A stretch of 26,841 bases of DNA from a virus (Duplodnaviria; Heunggongvirae; Uroviricota; Caudoviricetes). The stretch lies in IMG/VR virus record IMGVR_UViG_2802429248_000008, positions 1-26,841 of that record. The stretch is one strand, 5' to 3'. The translations under genes and the position numbers were made by a program. Of this stretch, positions 757-23,244 are shown one piece after another. The notes under the pieces are model-generated. The model was not told where the DNA came from and searched no databases. It saw only the letters and a program-made list of their open reading frames with translations. Every line of letters begins with the position of its first letter. Within the stretch, counting starts at the first letter, position 1.

Positions 757-1155
757 TCAGATTCCCTCCCAAACTATATATCCTTTGTCTCTTGCCCAAC
801 AAACAACTGTGTGGGCTGTATATGTGGATGTGAAGCCGCAATAAGAACATGACACTTCATACCGAGTATTGTAGATGTTAATGGGCTCGTTCTCCTTGTG
901 TATGGGAGTGACATATTCCCAATCATTCGAATCATCATAATCATCAAGCTCAGGGTCTGTGCCGTGAACAACCGTATGTGGAATAAACAAATCTGGGCGC
1001 CCACACGAGAGACAAGAGGTTCTGGCATCTCTATCTTTGAGGAATTGAATAAATAATTTGGGCGAAATCTGTTGCAGAACCTGCAAATGCCCACGTTCAT
1101 TATCATTAAGAGACCTGTCTGCATATGGAAAATCATCAAATTTAAGAGGCTTCAT
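757..1155 (-). CDS. Hypothetical zinc-ribbon protein (two CxxC pairs)
   Basis: ORF 757-1170. ATG 1155 has a GGAG 9 nt upstream; alternative starts are at 1164 and 1170. It carries CLSC and CSYC motifs about 60 aa apart. It overlaps the int stop (1142-1144), and its own stop abuts the next start. Confidence 0.7.
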   Translation of the reverse strand: MKPLKFDDFPYADRSLNDNERGHLQVLQQISPKLFIQFLKDRDARTSCLSCGRPDLFIPHTVVHGTDPELDDYDDSNDWEYVTPIHKENEPINIYNTRYEVSCSYCGFTSTYTAHTVVCWARDKGYIVWEGI

Positions 1156-2134
1156 ATAAGGCATCTCCAAGGGGATTAAATCTCACCGCATCCTGCAAGT
1201 AATCCGGCGCAAGATGGGCATAAATCATCGTTGTCTGAATCTTTGCGTGCCCCAGAATTTTCTGGAGCGTCAGAATATTGCCGCCGTTCATCATGAAATG
1301 ACTGGCGAAGGTGTGGCGCAGCGCATGAACAGCCTGGCCGTCGGGAACATCAGATGCGACCGTTTTGATGACATCGCGAACCAATGGATAATCCAGCGTC
1401 GGAAACACCAGTTTCCCGCCCCGTATTTTGATCTTTTCAAACAGGCTTTCAGAAATAGGAACGGTACGGTTTTTGCTGTTCTTCGTTTTTGAAAAAGTGA
1501 TTCGACAATGAAGAACACGGCGCTGCTCCAGTGCCGCTACCTCGCCCCATCGCGCCCCGGTCGACAGAAGGATTTCGACAGCCAGCCGTTCATCGGGATT
1601 TTCAGCCAGTGCATCCAGCAACTGAACACATTCAGACTTACTCAGATATCCCATTTCGCGCTCGTTAACCTTCATTCCTTTAAGGCCTTGAACGGGGTTA
1701 TCGTTAAGAAAATGGCCGGATGAGATGAGTGCGGTAAACATCGCGCTTAACGCCCCAATCTCTCGATTTATGGTGCTGGGCTGTATCCCCTGCTCTATCC
1801 TGGACACACGTAGCTCGGTGAGCATCGTTGTATTAAGTTTATGCACGCACGGGTCATCCATTGCCTCACTCAAGCGCAGCAATTTAAGGCGCGTGTTATG
1901 CCCTGACTTCATTAGCTGGCCGTGGTATTTCCACCACAAGTCAATAAGCACTGACAGCGGACGGCGATCAATGGAGTTTCCTTTCCACTCATTGTTATGC
2001 TGTTGCGCCAGCACCCACCGCTCATATAAAACTGCATCCGATTTCGTTTTAAATTTTTTACGAATGCGTTTGCCTTTACGCCCCTCCGGGCGCATGTCAA
2101 GAAGATACCCTCCCGGAATTGATTTTATGCTCAT
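1142..2134 (-). CDS. int: Tyrosine recombinase / P2-type phage integrase
   Basis: The start MSIKSIPGGYLLDMRPEGRKGKRIRKKF resembles the P2 Int N-terminus. The C-terminus has HALRHTFASHF and IYAHL catalytic motifs. The upstream part of the tracked ORF (to 2284) is probably untranslated. Confidence 0.93.
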   Translation of the reverse strand: MSIKSIPGGYLLDMRPEGRKGKRIRKKFKTKSDAVLYERWVLAQQHNNEWKGNSIDRRPLSVLIDLWWKYHGQLMKSGHNTRLKLLRLSEAMDDPCVHKLNTTMLTELRVSRIEQGIQPSTINREIGALSAMFTALISSGHFLNDNPVQGLKGMKVNEREMGYLSKSECVQLLDALAENPDERLAVEILLSTGARWGEVAALEQRRVLHCRITFSKTKNSKNRTVPISESLFEKIKIRGGKLVFPTLDYPLVRDVIKTVASDVPDGQAVHALRHTFASHFMMNGGNILTLQKILGHAKIQTTMIYAHLAPDYLQDAVRFNPLGDALYEAS

Positions 2135-2183
2135 TCGTGAAACCCCAGCGTTACAAGACCACCATGCCCCCAGCGCTCCATGA

Positions 2184-2492
2184 TTAGCCGGGCTGTGTGC
2201 CAGTCTTGCGGGGTTTTTGAGAAGGCGATGTGCTTTTTGGCCCATCAGGGGAGAGAGACGGACTGATCTGCCCAGCAGCCTCATTTGTTTTTCCCGTCAT
2301 AAGCCAATTCATGTACTTAAAAAAGCGAGGGTGATTAACAATCTTGATAAGCACTTCGCCCCCTATGTTTTCAATCCGCCCCGTTTCATAACGACGCAAA
2401 GTGCCGATAGGCACATCAATCAGGCCGCAAAATTCTTCGCGCGTTAAATCCTCTGATTCACGAATCACTCTAATTTTTTCACCGATAAGCAT
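2184..2492 (-). CDS. Immunity repressor, XRE-type HTH (P2 C-like)
   Basis: 102 aa from ATG 2492 (MLIGEKIRVIRESEDLTREEF...GTLRRYETG). It is similar in size to P2 C and lies directly upstream of int, divergent from the cox-like gene. Confidence 0.85.
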   Translation of the reverse strand: MLIGEKIRVIRESEDLTREEFCGLIDVPIGTLRRYETGRIENIGGEVLIKIVNHPRFFKYMNWLMTGKTNEAAGQISPSLSPDGPKSTSPSQKPRKTGTQPG

Positions 2493-5151: not shown

Positions 5152-5355
5152 ATGAACAAAAAGACCTGGTTTCGCGCATACATGTGGGCGCTGGTATGCG
5201 TCCTCGTTTCTCTCATTCTGTATGCAGGACTACTCCCCCGAATGATTTCATCAGACAGCTCCTTCCTGGTATTGCTGGGCATTTTCATTGCCATGCTGTA
5301 CCCGGCAGGCGTTGTTCGCCTTTTCAGTAAGTACATCAAGGAAATCAAACAATGA
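5152..5355 (+). CDS. Small two-helix membrane protein, partner of the SPFH gene
   Basis: 67 aa with two hydrophobic stretches (WALVCVLVSLILYAGLL and FLVLLGIFIAMLYPAGVV). ATGA overlap with the next gene. Confidence 0.65.
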   Translation: MNKKTWFRAYMWALVCVLVSLILYAGLLPRMISSDSSFLVLLGIFIAMLYPAGVVRLFSKYIKEIKQ

Positions 5356-6182
5356 AGAAATTCAAACTCTTTCAGATTCTCCCGCTTTTTGCCGCCATCC
5401 TGCTGGTTGGCTGCGATCGCGTTGAGCCAGGTAATGTGGGCATCAAAGTCAACAAGCTGGGCGACGACAAAGGCGTTGGCGAAGTGGTTGGCGTTGGCCG
5501 CTACTGGACTGGCTGGAATACAGAGGTTTACATCTTCCCGACCTTCAAACAAATGAAGACCTACGATGAGCCGTTCAGCTTCCAGATGAGTGACGGCACA
5601 ACCATCGGCTATCACATCGGCGTGGCTTACAAGGTTGATCCATCCAAAGTTACCACAGTGTTTCAGACCTACCGCAAAGGCGTGGATGACATTACCGACA
5701 CTGACCTGCGCCAGAAGATCGCCGATGCACTCAACCGACTGGCCAGCAAAATGACCACCGATAAGTTTATCGACGGCGGTAAGTCTGAACTGCTGGATTC
5801 AGCACTTAAAGATATTCAGGAAGAGATGACCCCCATCGGCATTCAGGTCATGAGCCTCTCTTATGTCGGCAAACCGGAATATCCGCCAACCGTTATCGAC
5901 AGCATTAACGCCAAAGTCACGGCAAACCAGAAAACCCTGCAACGCGAACAGGAAGTCAAGCAACGCGAAGCTGAAGCCAACATGCTGCGCGCAGAAGCTG
6001 CCGGACAGGCCGATGCCATTCGCACAAAAGCCCAGGCTGAAGCCGACGCCATTCGTTTACGCGGCGAAGCTCTGCGCCAGAATCCCGGCGTCATGGAGCT
6101 GGAAGCGATTAACAAATGGAACGGCACGCTGCCGCAATACATGACCAGTAACACCGCTGTTCCGTTCGTTCCCGTGAAGTAA
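5352..6182 (+). CDS. SPFH / band-7 (prohibitin-like) lipoprotein
   Basis: 276 aa. Signal peptide with lipobox LLVGC. SPFH-type core (GNVGIKVNKLG...YIFPTF...) followed by an Ala/Glu/Arg-rich coiled coil (QREAEANMLRAEAAGQADAIRTKAQAEADAIRLRGEAL). Confidence 0.8.
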   Translation: MKKFKLFQILPLFAAILLVGCDRVEPGNVGIKVNKLGDDKGVGEVVGVGRYWTGWNTEVYIFPTFKQMKTYDEPFSFQMSDGTTIGYHIGVAYKVDPSKVTTVFQTYRKGVDDITDTDLRQKIADALNRLASKMTTDKFIDGGKSELLDSALKDIQEEMTPIGIQVMSLSYVGKPEYPPTVIDSINAKVTANQKTLQREQEVKQREAEANMLRAEAAGQADAIRTKAQAEADAIRLRGEALRQNPGVMELEAINKWNGTLPQYMTSNTAVPFVPVK

Positions 6183-7295: not shown

Positions 7296-7526
7296 ATGGC
7301 AAACCGCAAACAGCACCGCGCTATCGCGGAGCGTCGTCACATCCAGACTGAAATCAACCGCAGACTTTTCCGCGCATCACGCGTCGCGCAGATCATGCAC
7401 ATCAATATGCTGCATGAGCGCAGCCACGCGCTATCGAACATCTATTCAGCCTCTATTTTCAGCTATCTGGCGGATGATCTGCGCGAGCTTCAGCGGCTCA
7501 TCCTGCAGCAAAACAAACTCCATTAA
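7296..7526 (+). CDS. Small basic protein; likely target of the antisense RNA (occupies the position of Icd in the P1 module)
   Basis: 76-aa ORF. Its GAAGAGG SD (7280-7286) is overlapped by the 10-nt target CAAACGAAGA (7275-7284). Confidence 0.6.
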   Translation: MANRKQHRAIAERRHIQTEINRRLFRASRVAQIMHINMLHERSHALSNIYSASIFSYLADDLRELQRLILQQNKLH

Positions 7527-7598
7527 TTCTGGTTCCGGGCCTTTCCTGCACCTTGCGGCGGGAGGCCTTCGCACATCTGTAACAAGAGGATTGCCGCA

Positions 7599-7964
7599 AT
7601 GATTCTCGCCAACGACTTTCTTGAATACCTGCTCAACACAGAGCGCGATCTTGCCGTTCGCGTGCGTGACCGTTATGACATGTACCTGAAATCCCTGCCT
7701 GTACCGCAGCTCGCTGACGGAAAGATTGTTATTGATGGCCGCTACATGATTGACAGCCACGAGGGAAATTACAGGCTTTACCGCATTGAAGGCGGCACCC
7801 CGTCCGTTATTGGCATTTACCAGCGCCCATCCTCTGCGATCGTCGATGTGATTGCAGACAGCATCCGCATCACACATCGCTATGCCGACACAGAAGACAC
7901 CGTGCTGGAAATTCAGCGGCTGGCTGCCGTTTGCCGTGACACCCTGAACGGTATGACGAAGTAA
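7599..7964 (+). CDS. Hypothetical early protein upstream of the replication gene
   Basis: 121-aa ORF with an AAGAGGA SD 9 nt upstream. Confidence 0.6.
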   Translation: MILANDFLEYLLNTERDLAVRVRDRYDMYLKSLPVPQLADGKIVIDGRYMIDSHEGNYRLYRIEGGTPSVIGIYQRPSSAIVDVIADSIRITHRYADTEDTVLEIQRLAAVCRDTLNGMTK

Positions 7965-7970
7965 ATCAGT

Positions 7971-10793
7971 ATGACGACAGAGTACATCAGGGACTGGCAA
8001 CAACCGCGCCACGCAGTAGGGCGTGAAGGAACGGGGATCCCCGCACCTGAATCCGCGCTTTCCTCCTGGCTGGATGCCTACCGGGCAGAGAACGAGCGCC
8101 GCCAGGAAAAGGCTGATGCGGTGTTCTCCGCCACGCCACTGGGCAACCTGATTAATAAAAGCCTGGACGCACAGGAAAAACAGGACAAAACCATCACTCT
8201 GGCAGGAGAAGCCAGAAGACAGGCACGCGGCGCGGTGGATGAAGCCATGGCCTCGCTGCGCCTGCTGCCGTCCTATCTGCGCGATCCGCTTATTCGCCAC
8301 CTCTCCTTCCTGCGCAAAAAACAGGAAGCCGATCGCCGGAAAGGCAAAAAGAGCTGGCAGGCAGAACGCTATGCACGCGGAACCCTGCGCAAGATATTCG
8401 ATCGCATTAACCGTGCCGACAGTCGCTGGCTGACACCGGGTTATCGCTCCCTTGCCGGACGCGAACGCCTGGACGATTTGCTTTACCTGCCGCAGCTCAA
8501 CAAACACCAGATACAGACGCTGGCCACCATGACGGCGGCGATGTTCAGCAGCACCTTCGAAAAACTCTGCGATGGCTTTGGCGCGACTGATGGTGAGCTG
8601 ACCATGGAGGTGGCACTGAAGGCGTATCAGATGCTGGCCCGCATGGCGTTACACCTGCACACCGTGCCGCCGCATTACGAAGCGCTGACAACAGACAAAG
8701 ACCGGAGGAACGAACCGGACACGGAGCTGCTGCCGGGCGCAATCCTTCGTCTGACCTGTGCGGAATGGTGGAAACGCAAACTGTGGCTGTTACGTTGCGA
8801 GTGGCGGGAAGAACAACTCCGTGCCGCCTGTCTGGTTTCCAGAAAAACATCGCCCTATCTGAGCCAGGACGCGTTAAGCGAGTTTCGCGCACAGCGCGAG
8901 AAAACACGCGATTTTCTGAAAAGTTTCATGCTGGAAAACGAAGACGGGTTCACGATTGATCTCGAGACAGTGTATTACGCGGGAGTAAGTAACCCGGTTC
9001 ACCGTAAGGCAGAAATGATGGCCACCATGAAGGGGCTGGAACTTCTGGCCGAAGCCCGTGGCGACAAAGCGGTGTTTCTGACTGTCACCTGCCCGTCAAA
9101 ATACCACGCCACAACAGAGAACGGTCATCCGAACCCCAGATGGAACGGGGCCACCATGCGCGACTCCAGCGATTACCTAGTTAACACGTTTTTTGCGGCG
9201 GTCCGCAAAAAACTGAACCGCGACGGTCTTCGCTGGTATGGCATCCGCACGGTGGAGCCTCACCATGACGGCACTGTGCACTGGCATATGATGGTCTTTG
9301 CACATCCGGAAGAAATCGACAGCATCGTGGCCATCACCCGCGATATTGCCATTCAGGAAGACCGCCACGAGCTGGGCAATGATATTACTCCGCGCTTTAA
9401 GGTGGAGTATGTCGACGGCTCAAAAGGCACACCGACCAGCTATATCGCCACCTACATCGGAAAAAACCTGGACAGCCGCGCCGTGGATGGCATCGACCCG
9501 AAAACGGGCAAGCCACGCGTTGACCACGAAACCGGAAAATCAATGGCCGAGAGCGTGGAGCGCGCCATCGGCTGGGCGCGCCTTCACCGCGTCCGCCAGT
9601 TCCAGTTCTTTGGCATCCCCTCCCGTCAGGTGTGGCGTGAACTGCGCCGCCTTGCCAGCCAGATGGCACGCAACCCGGAAGGCCCGCAACGGCTGAAGGA
9701 TGACGCAATGGATGCGGTACTCGCTGCCGCTGATGCCGGGTGTTTTGCCTCCTACATTGAAAAACAGGGTGGCGTACTTGTTCCACGCAAGGACTACCTG
9801 ATTCGCACCGCCTACGACCTCGCAGATGAGCTGAACGATTACGGCGAACAGGGCGTACAGATTTACGGGATCTGGTCACCACTCATCGGGGAATCCTCCC
9901 GTGTGTGCACGCACCCGGATAACTGGAAGCTGGTAAGACGTAAACCGGAACAGGAAGGTAGCGCCCACGAAAATGGTTTTGACCTTCAGGGCGGCCCTGC
10001 CGCCCCTTGGACCCGTGGCAATAACTGTCCCCGTGTACAGGAAACGGACAACAACGGGACAGAACAGCCGGAAGAACGGCCAGCACCGTGGCCGCAGCTT
10101 CCTGACGGCATTGAAGTGAACGAATGGATGCGCTCACTGAAACGGCACGAACGCCGGGCGCTGATGCGTTCGCTTCGTGACAAACAGGCAAAAAACAGCA
10201 GTGATGAAATGCAGAGCTGGACACAGAGCCGCAAACAGCAGCGGCCTTTGCCTGATAACCACGAATTACTCGCTAGAGAATGGCGGGAGTCTGCTGAATC
10301 TCTCGGCCTGCATATCGGTGAACAACAAATGCAGCACCTGTTACGGGGCGGCAGTCTGTACGTTGACGGCAGCATCATTGCACCGCAGGGATTTGAAATT
10401 GTACGCAAACCGGATACCCGCCCGGACAGCCGAATCACGCAGCTCTGGCAGCGCCTGAGCCGTAATCACGGTGTAAGCAGCACGGAGATCCGCCATAACC
10501 CGGTCGCCAGCTATCTGGCACAGCTGGGGGCATCAGACCCTGAAGCCGCCGCACGCCTGGCATCCACACTTCAGCAGGACCAGAACACCATGAAAACACC
10601 CGTTACCGTGCTTTCTGACATGCTGCGCGCCATCCGCGACGCAGAGCACGCACAGAGAATCAGTGAAACCACTGAACGCGCCCACCGCAAAGCAGACCTG
10701 CTGCGGGGTGGCCTGACCAGTGGAAACAAAAAACAGACAGAAACGGGACTCACGAATCCCGTAAATGAGCAAAAAACGCGCAGCGATATATGA
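7971..10793 (+). CDS. A: Rolling-circle replication initiator endonuclease (P2 gpA family), C-terminally extended
   Basis: 940 aa. HUH motif HHDGTVHWHMMVF at 9261-9299. Paired catalytic tyrosines YIATYIGKN at 9441-9467. Positioned as P2 A. Confidence 0.9.
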   Translation: MTTEYIRDWQQPRHAVGREGTGIPAPESALSSWLDAYRAENERRQEKADAVFSATPLGNLINKSLDAQEKQDKTITLAGEARRQARGAVDEAMASLRLLPSYLRDPLIRHLSFLRKKQEADRRKGKKSWQAERYARGTLRKIFDRINRADSRWLTPGYRSLAGRERLDDLLYLPQLNKHQIQTLATMTAAMFSSTFEKLCDGFGATDGELTMEVALKAYQMLARMALHLHTVPPHYEALTTDKDRRNEPDTELLPGAILRLTCAEWWKRKLWLLRCEWREEQLRAACLVSRKTSPYLSQDALSEFRAQREKTRDFLKSFMLENEDGFTIDLETVYYAGVSNPVHRKAEMMATMKGLELLAEARGDKAVFLTVTCPSKYHATTENGHPNPRWNGATMRDSSDYLVNTFFAAVRKKLNRDGLRWYGIRTVEPHHDGTVHWHMMVFAHPEEIDSIVAITRDIAIQEDRHELGNDITPRFKVEYVDGSKGTPTSYIATYIGKNLDSRAVDGIDPKTGKPRVDHETGKSMAESVERAIGWARLHRVRQFQFFGIPSRQVWRELRRLASQMARNPEGPQRLKDDAMDAVLAAADAGCFASYIEKQGGVLVPRKDYLIRTAYDLADELNDYGEQGVQIYGIWSPLIGESSRVCTHPDNWKLVRRKPEQEGSAHENGFDLQGGPAAPWTRGNNCPRVQETDNNGTEQPEERPAPWPQLPDGIEVNEWMRSLKRHERRALMRSLRDKQAKNSSDEMQSWTQSRKQQRPLPDNHELLAREWRESAESLGLHIGEQQMQHLLRGGSLYVDGSIIAPQGFEIVRKPDTRPDSRITQLWQRLSRNHGVSSTEIRHNPVASYLAQLGASDPEAAARLASTLQQDQNTMKTPVTVLSDMLRAIRDAEHAQRISETTERAHRKADLLRGGLTSGNKKQTETGLTNPVNEQKTRSDI

Positions 10794-10841
10794 AGCGCGC
10801 ACAAAACAGGCAAAAACGGGATTTCAGAATCCCGTAAACGA
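10726..10841 (+). repeat. Two ~41-bp direct repeats, each with an internal hairpin; candidate parC-like centromere/operator
   Basis: Copy 1 at 10726-10768 (acaaaaaacagacagaaacgggactcacgaatcccgtaaatga) and copy 2 at 10801-10841 (acaaaacaggcaaaaacgggatttcagaatcccgtaaacga). Core is ACGGGA-N8-TCCCGT. Copy 1 lies inside the end of A; copy 2 lies in the A-parM spacer. Confidence 0.6.
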
Positions 10842-10869
10842 TTAATTAATCAACATAAGGAAAAGCGAC

Positions 10870-11829
10870 ATGAAAATTTGTATCGACGACGGCTCCACCA
10901 ACATCAAGCTGGCATGGACTGAGAACAGCGAACGCCGCAACGCCATCAGCCCGAACAGCTTCAAGTCGGAATGGTCTGCGCCGTTCGGTGGCTCGCAGCC
11001 TGCGAACTACATGCTTGATGGCGTGCGCTATGGTTTTGATCCGGTCAGCGATCGCTTTGTCCAGACGACCGACACGCAATACCAGTACAGCGATGTGAAT
11101 GTAATCGCCATTCACCACGCGCTGGTCAAATCAGGCATCACACCACAGGAGGTGGATGTGGTTGTCACCCTGCCACTGAGCGAGTATTTCGACACAAACG
11201 CACAGCCGGACATGGCCAACATCAACCGCAAAAAAGCGAACGTTATGCGCCCGGTGGAGTACCAGAACGGTGAGGCATTCACTATCCGTAACGTGCGGGT
11301 TATGCCTGAATCCATTCCGGCTGGCTTTAAAGCACTGGCTGACATGAGTCCGTTTGAATCCCTGCTGATTGTGGATTTAGGCGGAACCACGCTGGATGTG
11401 GCAAAGGTTCAGGGACAACTGGCAGGTATCAGCCAGGTGTTTTGCGATCCACACGTAGGCGTTTCCCTGATGGCCGATGCCGTACTGTCGGTGATGGCCA
11501 CTAACGGTATGCGTACCAGTCACCACATCGCCAATACCATTATCGAACATCGCCATGATGAAGCCTGGCTGCGCCAGCACATCCACAATGACGCGCATTA
11601 CAACAGCCTGATGGCGGTTATTCGTGAAAAGGAAGAAACACTGAAACAACGCGTGATCCGCGCGCTGGCGGGTTTTTCGGGTTACGGGCGGGTGATGGTT
11701 GTCGGTGGAGGGGCGGAGATTGTGGCACCCGCTATCCGCGAAGCCTGCGGAGTTAATGCGACTTTCATCGCGGACGGGGTGCCACAGTTTGCTCTGGTTA
11801 ATGGGCTGTACGCAATGGACAAGGAGTAA
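10870..11829 (+). CDS. parM: ParM/StbA actin-like plasmid segregation ATPase
   Basis: 319 aa, aligning along its whole length with my recollection of R1 ParM. Shared segments include IDDGSTNIKL, YSDVNV-A-HHAL, VMPESIPAG, DLGGTTLD, GGGAE and LVNG-Y. Confidence 0.9.
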   Translation: MKICIDDGSTNIKLAWTENSERRNAISPNSFKSEWSAPFGGSQPANYMLDGVRYGFDPVSDRFVQTTDTQYQYSDVNVIAIHHALVKSGITPQEVDVVVTLPLSEYFDTNAQPDMANINRKKANVMRPVEYQNGEAFTIRNVRVMPESIPAGFKALADMSPFESLLIVDLGGTTLDVAKVQGQLAGISQVFCDPHVGVSLMADAVLSVMATNGMRTSHHIANTIIEHRHDEAWLRQHIHNDAHYNSLMAVIREKEETLKQRVIRALAGFSGYGRVMVVGGGAEIVAPAIREACGVNATFIADGVPQFALVNGLYAMDKE

Positions 11830-11833
11830 ACCA

Positions 11834-12145
11834 ATGACGACACCAACCAGACGGATAAGTTTCTATCTGAAGCCCGCCGCCGTCAAGAACGAAGGCGAAG
11901 CATGCGCCTGGCTGGACAGCCTTACACCAGAAGCCCGCAAAAGCGGCCAACGCGTGGCTTTTCTGGCCGGGCTGGCACTTCTGAAAATGAATCCGGCAGA
12001 GGCTTACCGACTGGCTGCATGGGCTGACGATGAGGCGTTATCGGTGACACAAACCAGGACAGAACGCCCCGTGTCACAGCCAGTACCAACCGCACAGATA
12101 ACCAGTCAGATGGCAGGGAATATCCGGGCATTATTTCCTGAATGA
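11834..12145 (+). CDS. parR: ParR-like centromere-binding adaptor
   Basis: 103 aa from ATG 11834, with an AAGGAG SD 7 nt upstream. The N-terminal ribbon-helix-helix-like segment RRISFYLKP...ACAWLDSL...RVAFLAGLAL parallels R1 ParR (RTIAFKLNP...LDSIP...AALTAGLAL). It lies immediately downstream of parM. Confidence 0.7.
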   Translation: MTTPTRRISFYLKPAAVKNEGEACAWLDSLTPEARKSGQRVAFLAGLALLKMNPAEAYRLAAWADDEALSVTQTRTERPVSQPVPTAQITSQMAGNIRALFPE

Positions 12146-12205
12146 CGAATTTGACGGCTTTTAATTTTATCGGGGTGCACTGTCGCCCCGCACGAGGAAA
12201 ACACG

Positions 12206-12730
12206 ATGAAAAAATACGAATACATGCTAATGAAAGAAGCACTGCGGGCTGGTCTGGCTCCCTGTCCTGTATCCGTAGAAGCTGTTGTTGGGAACACGAT
12301 TTTCCGAACGCTGCGAAATCGCGTATCCGTGAAGATGATTCACCAACCACCCAAATCTACCAGCATGATCTATCTGCCGCTGCCCGAGGCTATCAAACTT
12401 ATGCGTTCGCTGAAATTTGCGATTTGGATGCAGACACAGCTCAACAAAGCGGTGCAAAACACCTTCGTTAAGAAACTGATGCCGGAGCTTGCTGCCAGAT
12501 GTGCAAAATGTACCAGACCAGCACTTCAATTTGATCTGTCATTGATTCAACAAGCTACGGAGGCAGAACTGTACCGCCTGTCACCTCTCCATGATGCTCA
12601 CACGGAAGCCTCAGAAATGTTCCGGCTCATGTTTCAATTTAATTTTGCCGTTCGACGCACACGCGTTCAGGTCAATCGCATGATGCAGGCGCAGGAAGAG
12701 CTGACGCAACACAAAGGAGGCAACCAGTGA
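12206..12730 (+). CDS. Hypothetical protein, accessory hotspot gene 1
   Basis: 174-aa ORF with a GAGGA SD. No family recognised. Visibly more AT-rich than the late genes. Confidence 0.65.
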   Translation: MKKYEYMLMKEALRAGLAPCPVSVEAVVGNTIFRTLRNRVSVKMIHQPPKSTSMIYLPLPEAIKLMRSLKFAIWMQTQLNKAVQNTFVKKLMPELAARCAKCTRPALQFDLSLIQQATEAELYRLSPLHDAHTEASEMFRLMFQFNFAVRRTRVQVNRMMQAQEELTQHKGGNQ

Positions 12731-22666: not shown

Positions 22667-23244
22667 GCGCAGAACTCATGCGGCTGCTGAGCAACATCAT
22701 CCGCACCGGGATCATCTCTGAAGTTGATGAGGAATCCTGGCGCGTGCGCGTTCGCAGCGGCGAACTGGAAACAGGCTGGTTGCGCTGGAACACCACGCGC
22801 GCGGGGGCCTTCAATGTGTGGCTGCCGCCATCACCAGGCGAACAGGTGGTCATTGCCTGCATTGGCGGCAACCCGGAAACCGCCATGATAATCGGCAGCC
22901 TGTGGAGTGATGCCAATCCGGCACCCGGCAAAAGCCTGAAAGAAATCGTGATCAGCGCGCCGGACGGCGCGGTGTTCCGCTACGACGCGGACGCAGGCGC
23001 ACTGAGTGCCAGCGGCATGAAAACGGCCACTTTGCAGGCATCCGTCAGCGTGAAACTGGATACACCCGTCGTGGAATGCACAAACCTTCTGAAAACAGCC
23101 GAGATTGACGTCACAAAAGGGGGAAAGATGAGCGGCAATATCACGCACAGCGGCGGCGACTTCACCTCAAACGGCATCACAGTGCATACGCATAAACACG
23201 GTGGCGTTAAAGGTGGCAGCGATTCGACAGGAGGCCCGCAGTGA
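22663..23244 (+). CDS. V: Baseplate spike / assembly protein V
   Basis: IRTGIISEVD, GEQVVIACIGG and HTHKHGG segments parallel P2 gpV. GTGA overlap with S and a GGAGG SD. Confidence 0.88.
   Translation: MSAELMRLLSNIIRTGIISEVDEESWRVRVRSGELETGWLRWNTTRAGAFNVWLPPSPGEQVVIACIGGNPETAMIIGSLWSDANPAPGKSLKEIVISAPDGAVFRYDADAGALSASGMKTATLQASVSVKLDTPVVECTNLLKTAEIDVTKGGKMSGNITHSGGDFTSNGITVHTHKHGGVKGGSDSTGGPQ

Follow-up and report, generated by a model that had tools for sequence, protein, structure and literature searches.

The parM-parR gene pair directly behind the replication gene gpA of a P88-like prophage of Escherichia coli was analyzed in a 26,841-nt stretch of DNA (IMG/VR record IMGVR_UViG_2802429248_000008, positions 1 to 26,841; hereafter the window). 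As judged from its sequence, the pair forms, together with candidate cis-acting sites upstream of parM, a complete and selectively maintained type II (ParMRC-like) DNA-segregation cassette. The two proteins were identified with near certainty as true ParM and ParR, and two palindromes upstream of parM are probably the sites recognized by ParR. In the composite model proposed here, ParR on the palindromes and filaments of ParM would move extrachromosomal circles of the phage genome; we assign to this model a probability of about 0.5. Among the roles considered in a preliminary description of this DNA, positioning or segregation of extrachromosomal genomes was the most likely one. The coordinates of the relevant features are collected in Table 1.

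Table 1. Components of the partition cassette and related phage genes in the window
Feature	Position	Strand	Description
parM	10870-11829	+	319-aa actin-like segregation ATPase; Pfam and R1 ParM structure alignment
parR	11834-12145	+	103-aa adaptor; PF10784
Repeat 1	10727-10768		42 nt; inside the last 22 codons of gpA; direct-repeat search
Repeat 2	10800-10841		42 nt, 81% identical to repeat 1; gpA-parM intergenic; direct-repeat search
Palindrome 1	10743-10762		ACGGGACT-CACG-AATCCCGT, core GGG-N10-CCC; candidate ParR site
Palindrome 2	10816-10835		ACGGGATT-TCAG-AATCCCGT; candidate ParR site; 35 nt 5' of the parM ATG
gpA	7971-10793	+	940-aa P2-type rolling-circle replication endonuclease; Pfam Phage_GPA, E 1e-129
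Tyrosine integrase	1142-2284	-	intact; Pfam Int_N and Phage_integrase

Residues 1-157 of ParM matched Pfam StbA_N (E 7.7e-82) and residues 159-316 matched the ParM C-terminal domain (E 1.4e-68), while residues 2-316 aligned with residues 2-318 of R1 ParM (PDB 1mwk, E 2.1e-92). The end-to-end alignment with R1 ParM claimed in the preliminary description was thus confirmed, and every motif quoted there was present (IDDGSTNIKL, VMPESIPAG, DLGGTTLD, GGGAE and LVNGLY). When the sequence was aligned with the ParM proteins of R100 and pEL60, the ATP-binding residues D6, D7, G8, S9, T10, E147, D169, G171, G172, T173, T174 and G279-A282 were invariant. The phosphate-1, phosphate-2, catalytic Glu and adenosine motifs of the actin-fold ATPase were all intact, and a lack of ATPase residues, raised earlier as a possibility, was not seen in the sequence.

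The ATG of parR was located at 11834, 5 nt past the parM stop, correcting the earlier assignment of 11835. Residues 6-76 of the product matched Pfam Plasmid_stab_B, the ParR family (PF10784, E 1.6e-24), in agreement with the ParR-like character first attributed to this gene. A direct sequence search of PDB with ParR gave no match. The AlphaFold2 monomer model had a predicted local distance difference test score of 60, and a Foldseek search of PDB returned nothing below E = 4.9, as is expected for an obligate ribbon-helix-helix (RHH) dimer. A profile built from ParR relatives reached pB171 ParR (PDB 2JD3, E 7e-4, residues 9-74) as the only solved structure, and the phage protein was therefore assigned to the RHH family of ParR. 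It comprised an N-terminal RHH-type domain, a helical core of two main types, a hypervariable linker at about residues 65-95, and a conserved tail. The N-terminal 14 residues, MTTPTRRISFYLKP, predicted to form the DNA-reading strand, were invariant across alleles, and the last eight residues followed the pattern NI(R/Q)x(L/F)FPE, with N96, I97, F101 and P102 invariant in 28 relatives. The phage tail (NIRALFPE) was similar to the C-termini of pEL60 ParR (KNVQHLFPDDD) and R100 ParR (KKNAMKLIN), the latter being of the same KNxxxL type. In R1 ParR, the C-terminal region is the ParM-binding peptide. The gene was a mosaic with invariant ends, present as at least three alleles approximately 50% identical to each other. 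Nucleotide homology among P88-like prophages stopped inside parR, at about codon 18 or codon 48, placing the left edge of the gpA-portal variable hotspot within this gene. A scan of genome contigs with ParR peptide patterns, which was too narrow a search, retrieved three loci only.

The two repeats upstream of parM were the single dominant large direct-repeat family of the region, with a distance of 73 nt from start to start. They had been described as repeats of about 41 bp; both of them exist and the hairpin motif ACGGGA-N8-TCCCGT was found exactly once in each, while the coordinates were off by 1 nt and the length proved to be 42 nt. The first repeat does overlap the end of gpA, the stop codon of which lies at 10791-10793. 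The two palindromes are 73 bp apart, corresponding to approximately seven helical turns, and would thus be on the same face of the helix. The sequence CGGGAYT-N4-AATCCCG occurred twice in the 26.8 kb, both times at these palindromes, with an expected number of 0.00 from 100 shuffles, and the palindrome motif was absent elsewhere in the 41-kb and 29.5-kb phage loci. Scanning of IMG/VR for CGGGATT-N4-AATCCCG returned either P88-like matches or unrelated chance singletons. In 88 P88-like loci, the consensus of both copies was ACGGGATT-N4-AATCCCGT, in which the arms were conserved and the central 4 nt varied freely. A third GGG-N10-CCC sequence (GGGGTGCACTGTCGCCCC) was seen from 12173, within a stretch just past the parR stop (12139-12214) that was 84.6% identical to the phage-plasmid D6. 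This stretch is probably part of the downstream cargo, as it was not conserved in other P88-like phages, the homology of which ended at about 12146.

The comparison across lineages supported the assignment of the palindromes. Five lineages (E. coli, Salmonella, a Hafnia metagenome-assembled genome (MAG), Plesiomonas, and Hafnia sp.) each had exactly two GGG-N10-CCC sites, separated by 72-73 bp; counted from the ATG of parM, the first was located at -124 or -125 to -131 and the second at -52 to -59. The background density of this pattern was 2.2e-4 per nt. The sites of Plesiomonas and Hafnia sp. were located at -128 to -131 and -55 to -59, although ParM was only 62% identical, and Hafnia sp. 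kept the paired sites even though the open reading frame (ORF) preceding parM differed from gpA. A role of the repeats as part of the P2 replication origin was disfavored, as the sites in Hafnia sp. accompany parM and not gpA; a putative P2 nick-site sequence had no match at 3 or fewer mismatches, a result given little weight because the sequence used is uncertain. In the Hafnia MAG, the gpA stop is a TGA in the center of palindrome 1 and gpA reads the palindrome in another frame, which indicated that the constraint acts on the DNA and not on the gpA protein. The ParR beta-strand TRR(I/V)SFYL(K/N)P was common to all lineages with paired sites. Serratia and Enterobacter, in which the corresponding ParR sequence was RKISFYLKP, had instead one inverted repeat of 14-20 nt with a 26-28-nt spacer, and the candidate sites were absent from R100 and pEL60. 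The paired sites travel with parM across genera, giving real comparative support to the candidate centromere. The element proposed in the preliminary description lies where parC would be expected, but it is no iteron array of the R1 type.

The cassette was also maintained by selection. The ratio of nonsynonymous to synonymous substitution rates (dN/dS) of ParM against seven diverged copies was 0.08-0.21, or about 0.1, showing that ParM is under purifying selection. Of 79 IMG/VR loci, 78 encoded a full-length ParM and about 76 a full-length ParR. Among 50,697 phage records, the P88 group and the phage-plasmid D6 were the only ones with an R1-type ParM, and protein searches detected distant relatives of 53-62% identity. 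The layout of gpA, parM-parR, cargo and portal was repeated in contigs of Plesiomonas, Hafnia, Serratia and Enterobacter. In a neighbor-joining tree constructed without bootstraps, the ParM proteins with verified P2-like context formed one clade, which had the IncL/M plasmid type as its sister group and was distant from R100. Within this single clade, at least six genera have kept the module, and its non-coding sites are conserved. These distributions point to an old cassette of P2-like phages, including relatives in Salmonella, Hafnia, Plesiomonas, Serratia and Enterobacter. A 226-kb contig under a Firmicute label, 'Vagococcus sp. WN89Y' (NZ_JBQPOM010000071.1), contained a gpA-parM-parR segment nearly identical to the E. 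coli copies, and most likely represents a contaminated or mislabelled assembly.

By its gene content and similarity, the element in the window is a P88-like prophage (genus Xuanwuvirus, P2 family) of E. coli. Within positions 1-25000 of the window, 78% matched phage P88 at 96.3% identity, and the gpA-parM-parR segment was 98.1% identical to P88. The initial recognition of an integrase-encoding P2-like phage was upheld by the intact tyrosine integrase accompanied by P2-type gpA, portal, terminase and capsid genes; a C-type repressor was also encoded, and structural, lysis and replication genes were present. The left prophage end joins the chromosome near btuC, with a flank matching the btuC side in related genomes, indicating that this copy is integrated. 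The same was true of nearly all other copies. Among 5,426 complete E. coli genomes, 1,308 had the parMR pair annotated by the Prokaryotic Genome Annotation Pipeline (PGAP). P88-like prophages with the cassette were present in 24% of the complete genomes, among them those of UTI89, ST131, O157:H7 and E2348/69-type strains, and 1,454 of the 1,456 cassette copies were chromosomal. In PLSDB, 7 of 72,556 plasmids carried the cassette. Six of these records were replicons of 227 kb to 1.4 Mb or fragments, and not phage-sized circles. The other, pZ1323PEC0009-2 (NZ_CP148288.1), was a 34,461-bp circular 'plasmid' consisting of a complete P88-like phage, as judged from the circular record alone; beside ogr, this phage has a hok/gef toxin gene together with a com/mom-like methyltransferase pair. 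The circular attP junction was rebuilt from this record and searched in all complete genomes. The intact junction was found in none of the 442 genomes with that int/att type, in all of which it was split at the att core. These results demonstrated that the resident state is integration, with a plasmid state being rare or transient at most, and an episomal lifestyle as the usual state, one of the options raised at the outset, was contradicted.

The strongest competing explanation is that P88-like phages are facultative phage-plasmids, which persist for generations as low-copy circles, for example when attB is absent or occupied, and are maintained by ParMRC, with integration being only one of their two forms of lysogeny. 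In the study of Pfeifer et al. 2021 (PMC7969092), P88 was classed as a candidate phage-plasmid, and an episomal state besides the integrative one was suggested. Rousset et al. 2022 (PMC9122126), in an analysis of 18,150 gpA-gpQ loci, reported the cassette in approximately a fourth of the P2-like phages of E. coli and proposed plasmid maintenance. The circular pZ1323PEC0009-2 with its hok/gef killer module and the ParM of the true E. coli phage-plasmid D6, which is 47.5% identical, also agree with this explanation. Plasmid-type partition genes alongside a full phage gene set, a feature of phage-plasmids, are present here. The chromosomal location of almost every copy and the consistently split attP junction nevertheless make it unlikely. 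In addition, lysogens of phiSM and P88 have been reported as integrated, the rolling-circle gpA was the sole replication gene and no plasmid-type theta replicon was seen in the window, and a lone circular contig can stem from spontaneous induction in the sequenced culture.

The repeats could alternatively act as RNA or transcription elements, either as terminators of leftward antisense transcription from the hotspot cargo or as processing or attenuation signals between gpA and parM. Both palindromes scored as intrinsic-terminator-like on the minus strand, with an 8-bp stem and a T-rich tail, and the hairpins of E. coli folded at approximately -10 kcal/mol (-9 to -11). The arm changes in the 88 loci were single-sided substitutions with no double compensatory change, and the two commonest ones (A to G and C to T) keep G-U pairing in the plus-strand RNA. 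However, the hairpins of Plesiomonas and Hafnia sp. folded at only -4 to -5 kcal/mol, as only the GGG/CCC was retained in a 3-4-bp stem with a 10-nt loop and the flanking A/T tracts were missing. Since the position and the 72-73-bp spacing persisted while hairpin energy and A/T tracts did not, recognition of duplex DNA by a dimeric protein was favored over an RNA hairpin or terminator. Both palindromes of one genome kept an identical arm sequence, which is expected for a protein site and not for independent terminators, and a terminator upstream of parM would not shield parMR from antisense transcripts. We consider a function at the RNA level improbable for these reasons.

The cassette is located in the gpA-portal interval of E. 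coli P2-like phages, which was described as a hotspot rich in defense systems (PMC9122126). The cargo just 3' of parR differed for each lineage, examples being a YafO toxin, a HicAB toxin-antitoxin pair, a KAP NTPase and an Ead/Ea22-like protein, and the cargo stretches in three loci were 22807-23187, 7450-8084 and 7411-8757 in the numbering of each locus. This variety is consistent with the published defense and accessory hotspot. The position in the hotspot and the variable cargo including toxins directly behind parR raise the idea that parMR itself is hotspot cargo with an exclusion role, namely incompatibility against ParMRC plasmids or competing phages, or anti-phage defense. Such a role had been listed in the preliminary description, and nothing in its support was found: ParM, ParR and the two downstream ORFs matched none of the 5,027 PADLOC defense models. 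Moreover, parM was conserved alongside gpA at 95-98% nucleotide identity, the variability starting inside or after parR, and the full triad of ATPase, adaptor and upstream repeats was kept even between deeply diverged lineages, in the way that a partition system acting in cis should be. A cross-reaction with the centromeres of plasmids is unlikely, as tblastn with the phage ParR (E 1e-3) found no relative in true plasmids and R100 and pEL60 lack the candidate sites. An exclusion role is accordingly still less probable than a function in RNA. The idea of a functionless relic hitch-hiking beside gpA, for which no phenotype having been reported and the degraded prophages of the O157:H7 CP-933T type could be cited, is very hard to reconcile with the low dN/dS, the intactness of 78 of 79 copies, and the retention of the module in one clade with conserved non-coding sites across genera. 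In the CP-933T-type prophage of E. coli O157:H7 strain 9234, structural genes are missing, an IS1203 insertion directly follows parR, and palindrome 2 has the mutated sequence GCGGGATT-TAAA-AATCCTGT; parM and parR are still intact there.

The proposed mechanism starts from the location of parM and parR directly behind gpA, the last gene of the early plus-strand block before parM. In consensus scans, neither the segment 10400-12400 nor the gpA-parM interval gave a sigma-70-like promoter, and the plus strand gave no terminator-like site between 7189 and 11419; no -10/-35 element was conserved between the palindromes across lineages. A weak promoter candidate between the palindromes (ATGAGC-16-TATATG) was discarded, as it was not conserved in Salmonella, Plesiomonas or Hafnia sp. 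and was not found by the scan. Because no promoter or plus-strand terminator was detected between gpA and parM, parMR is probably expressed together with the early replication operon. ParR would then bind the two GGG-N10-CCC palindromes through its N-terminal RHH domain and capture ParM filaments through its conserved C-terminal tail, and the growing filaments would push apart or position phage genomes while these are free circles. P2-type replication, initiated by the rolling-circle protein gpA, yields monomeric circles, which are also the packaging substrate; the phage thus passes through a plasmid-like state. A free-circle stage would occur after injection and before integration, after excision, and during the P2-type rolling-circle replication, and we regard the chances as even that the system acts there. 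The benefit may be fewer phage genomes lost from dividing cells, more efficient replication, or both. We infer ParR binding, co-transcription with gpA, filament-driven movement and the timing of action from the sequences compared here.

Several points weigh against this model. The upstream region showed no 10- or 11-bp periodicity (autocorrelation z below 2, compared with 4.7 for R100 and 3.3 for pEL60), and an R1-type array of 11-bp 'CAAAA...' units, parsed by eye, was ruled out by the same analysis. Only two palindromes, that is, four half-sites, were found upstream of parM, and these may offer too few ParR dimers to cap a ParM filament. As the three ParR alleles of about 50% identity share the same palindromes, covariation between allele and palindrome was not seen within the group and does not prove the pairing of ParR with these sites. 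The co-transcription of parMR with gpA was deduced from the consensus scans alone. P2-type lytic growth is short, so that a benefit of segregation during lysis is not obvious, and literature searches aimed at functional work on this cassette found none. The alternative roles listed in the preliminary description retain some probability. The papers on the O157 proteome and on a ciprofloxacin transcriptome that mention CP-933T contained nothing on parM or parR.

A more specific idea is that the two-palindrome element is a minimal type II centromere, through which P88-like phages would pass to both daughter cells while extrachromosomal. The phage would then have a carrier or plasmid-like state that is heritable, either prior to integration or following excision. 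We regard this as doubtful, though less so than a long-lived plasmid form. If it is correct, a plasmid-like heritable state exists in a phage family assumed to lysogenize by integration only, and four ParR half-sites can serve a ParM spindle in place of an iteron array. The question is relevant because the cassette is kept intact under purifying selection, though a resident integrated prophage does not itself need a partition system. Its function would clarify how temperate phages handle their free circles, with respect to lysogenization efficiency, prophage loss and replication after induction, as well as whether they can switch to a plasmid state and the minimal size of a type II centromere. 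The present analysis contributes to this a cis-element that is defined and open to testing, along with evidence at the population level that residence is not episomal.

The genes themselves were not new. Records of P88, phiSM, P884B11, 520873 and others in GenBank/RefSeq already label them as ParM or partition protein, and PHROGs has 'partition protein' families for both parM and parR. The system is thus of low novelty, having been annotated and discussed in print, and the pairing of an integrating phage with parMR, regarded as unexpected in the preliminary description, is not so: the two published studies cited above had raised the same idea of a plasmid state. As far as our searches show, the new elements are the defined and comparatively supported cis-element, its difference from the iteron-type parC, the single clade of phage ParM, and the quantitative evidence for an integrated resident form.

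Two further observations were made in the early operon of the window. The gpA protein had 940 residues, compared with 785-913 in relatives, and its last 22 codons run through palindrome 1, so that the C-terminal tail is probably an incidental read-through over the cis-element. An SPFH/Band-7 family gene was located at 5352-6182 on the plus strand, and the segment 5409-6360 was 90-93% identical to phiP27 and several Stx2-converting lambdoid phages, for which reason it looks like a moron that P2-like and lambdoid phages have exchanged.

When compared with known systems, the phage cassette had the same order as ParMRC of R1/R100, with the cis site, a candidate one in the phage, followed by parM and parR. 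The ParM proteins were 46% identical in a MAFFT alignment with all ATP-binding motifs shared, the N-terminal RHH-type domain of R100 ParR was 34% identical over 56 aa, and the ribosome-binding context (CATAAGGA) was similar. The strand expected to face the DNA differed, RRISFYLKP in the phage and RRTIAFKLNP in R1/R100, which suggested a different DNA specificity of the two ParR proteins. Whereas R100 parC has a promoter with a block of 11-bp direct iterons on either side, the phage has two 20-bp palindromes and no recognizable sigma-70 promoter; a ParR-autoregulated promoter inside the parC-like region was not seen by the consensus scan. The R1/R100 replicon is a low-copy plasmid, while the host of the phage system is an integrating phage. 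The closest plasmid clade in the tree was that of the IncL/M ParMR (pEL60/pOXA-48 type), the ParM of which was 52% identical and the DNA approximately 67% identical over 600 nt. Unlike the phage, pEL60 has 10-bp iterons (GTATTTTTCT) in two clusters, and its ParR of 147 aa was not detected by tblastn with the phage ParR. The pB171 ParR, the structure reached by the profile, had low sequence similarity to the phage protein, and the centromeres of pB171 are arrays of many 6-bp repeats. The P1-like phage-plasmid D6 has an StbA-type ParM related over the full length; D6 is a 91-kb extrachromosomal element, whereas P88-like phages integrate.

By its composition, the cassette fits a functional class, as distinct from a sequence family, that is represented by AlpAC and SrpMRC: elements integrated at rest that encode an actin-like ATPase together with its adaptor and have sites upstream of these genes. 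AlpAC (AlpC/AlpA/alpS) of the prophage CGP3 of Corynebacterium glutamicum is induced early, its adaptor binds upstream of the operon encoding it, and the excised circle requires the system in order to replicate efficiently (Donovan et al. 2015, PMC4446434; Forde et al. 2017, PMC5539076). It resembles the phage cassette in being carried by an integrated prophage and in combining an actin-like ATPase with a co-transcribed adaptor, but differs in its actin-like family, in the phylum of its host and in gene order (alpA-alpC), and no close sequence relationship was found here. SrpMRC of the SXT/R391 integrative and conjugative elements is a type II ParM-like system upstream of the int operon, the centromere of which comprises no more than four short repeats, direct and inverted; it was shown to make loss of the excised element less frequent and to increase the stability of a test plasmid about 2-fold (Carraro et al. 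2015, PMC4489591). The relationship of SrpM and SrpR to ParM and ParR of R1 is only a distant one, SrpR has no recognizable ParR domain, and the element is conjugative and not viral. Like the P88-like phages, SXT/R391 is an integrating element and uses a rolling-circle initiator of the HUH type when excised (PMC4489591), and by this analogy SrpMRC appears to be the best functional counterpart of the phage cassette.

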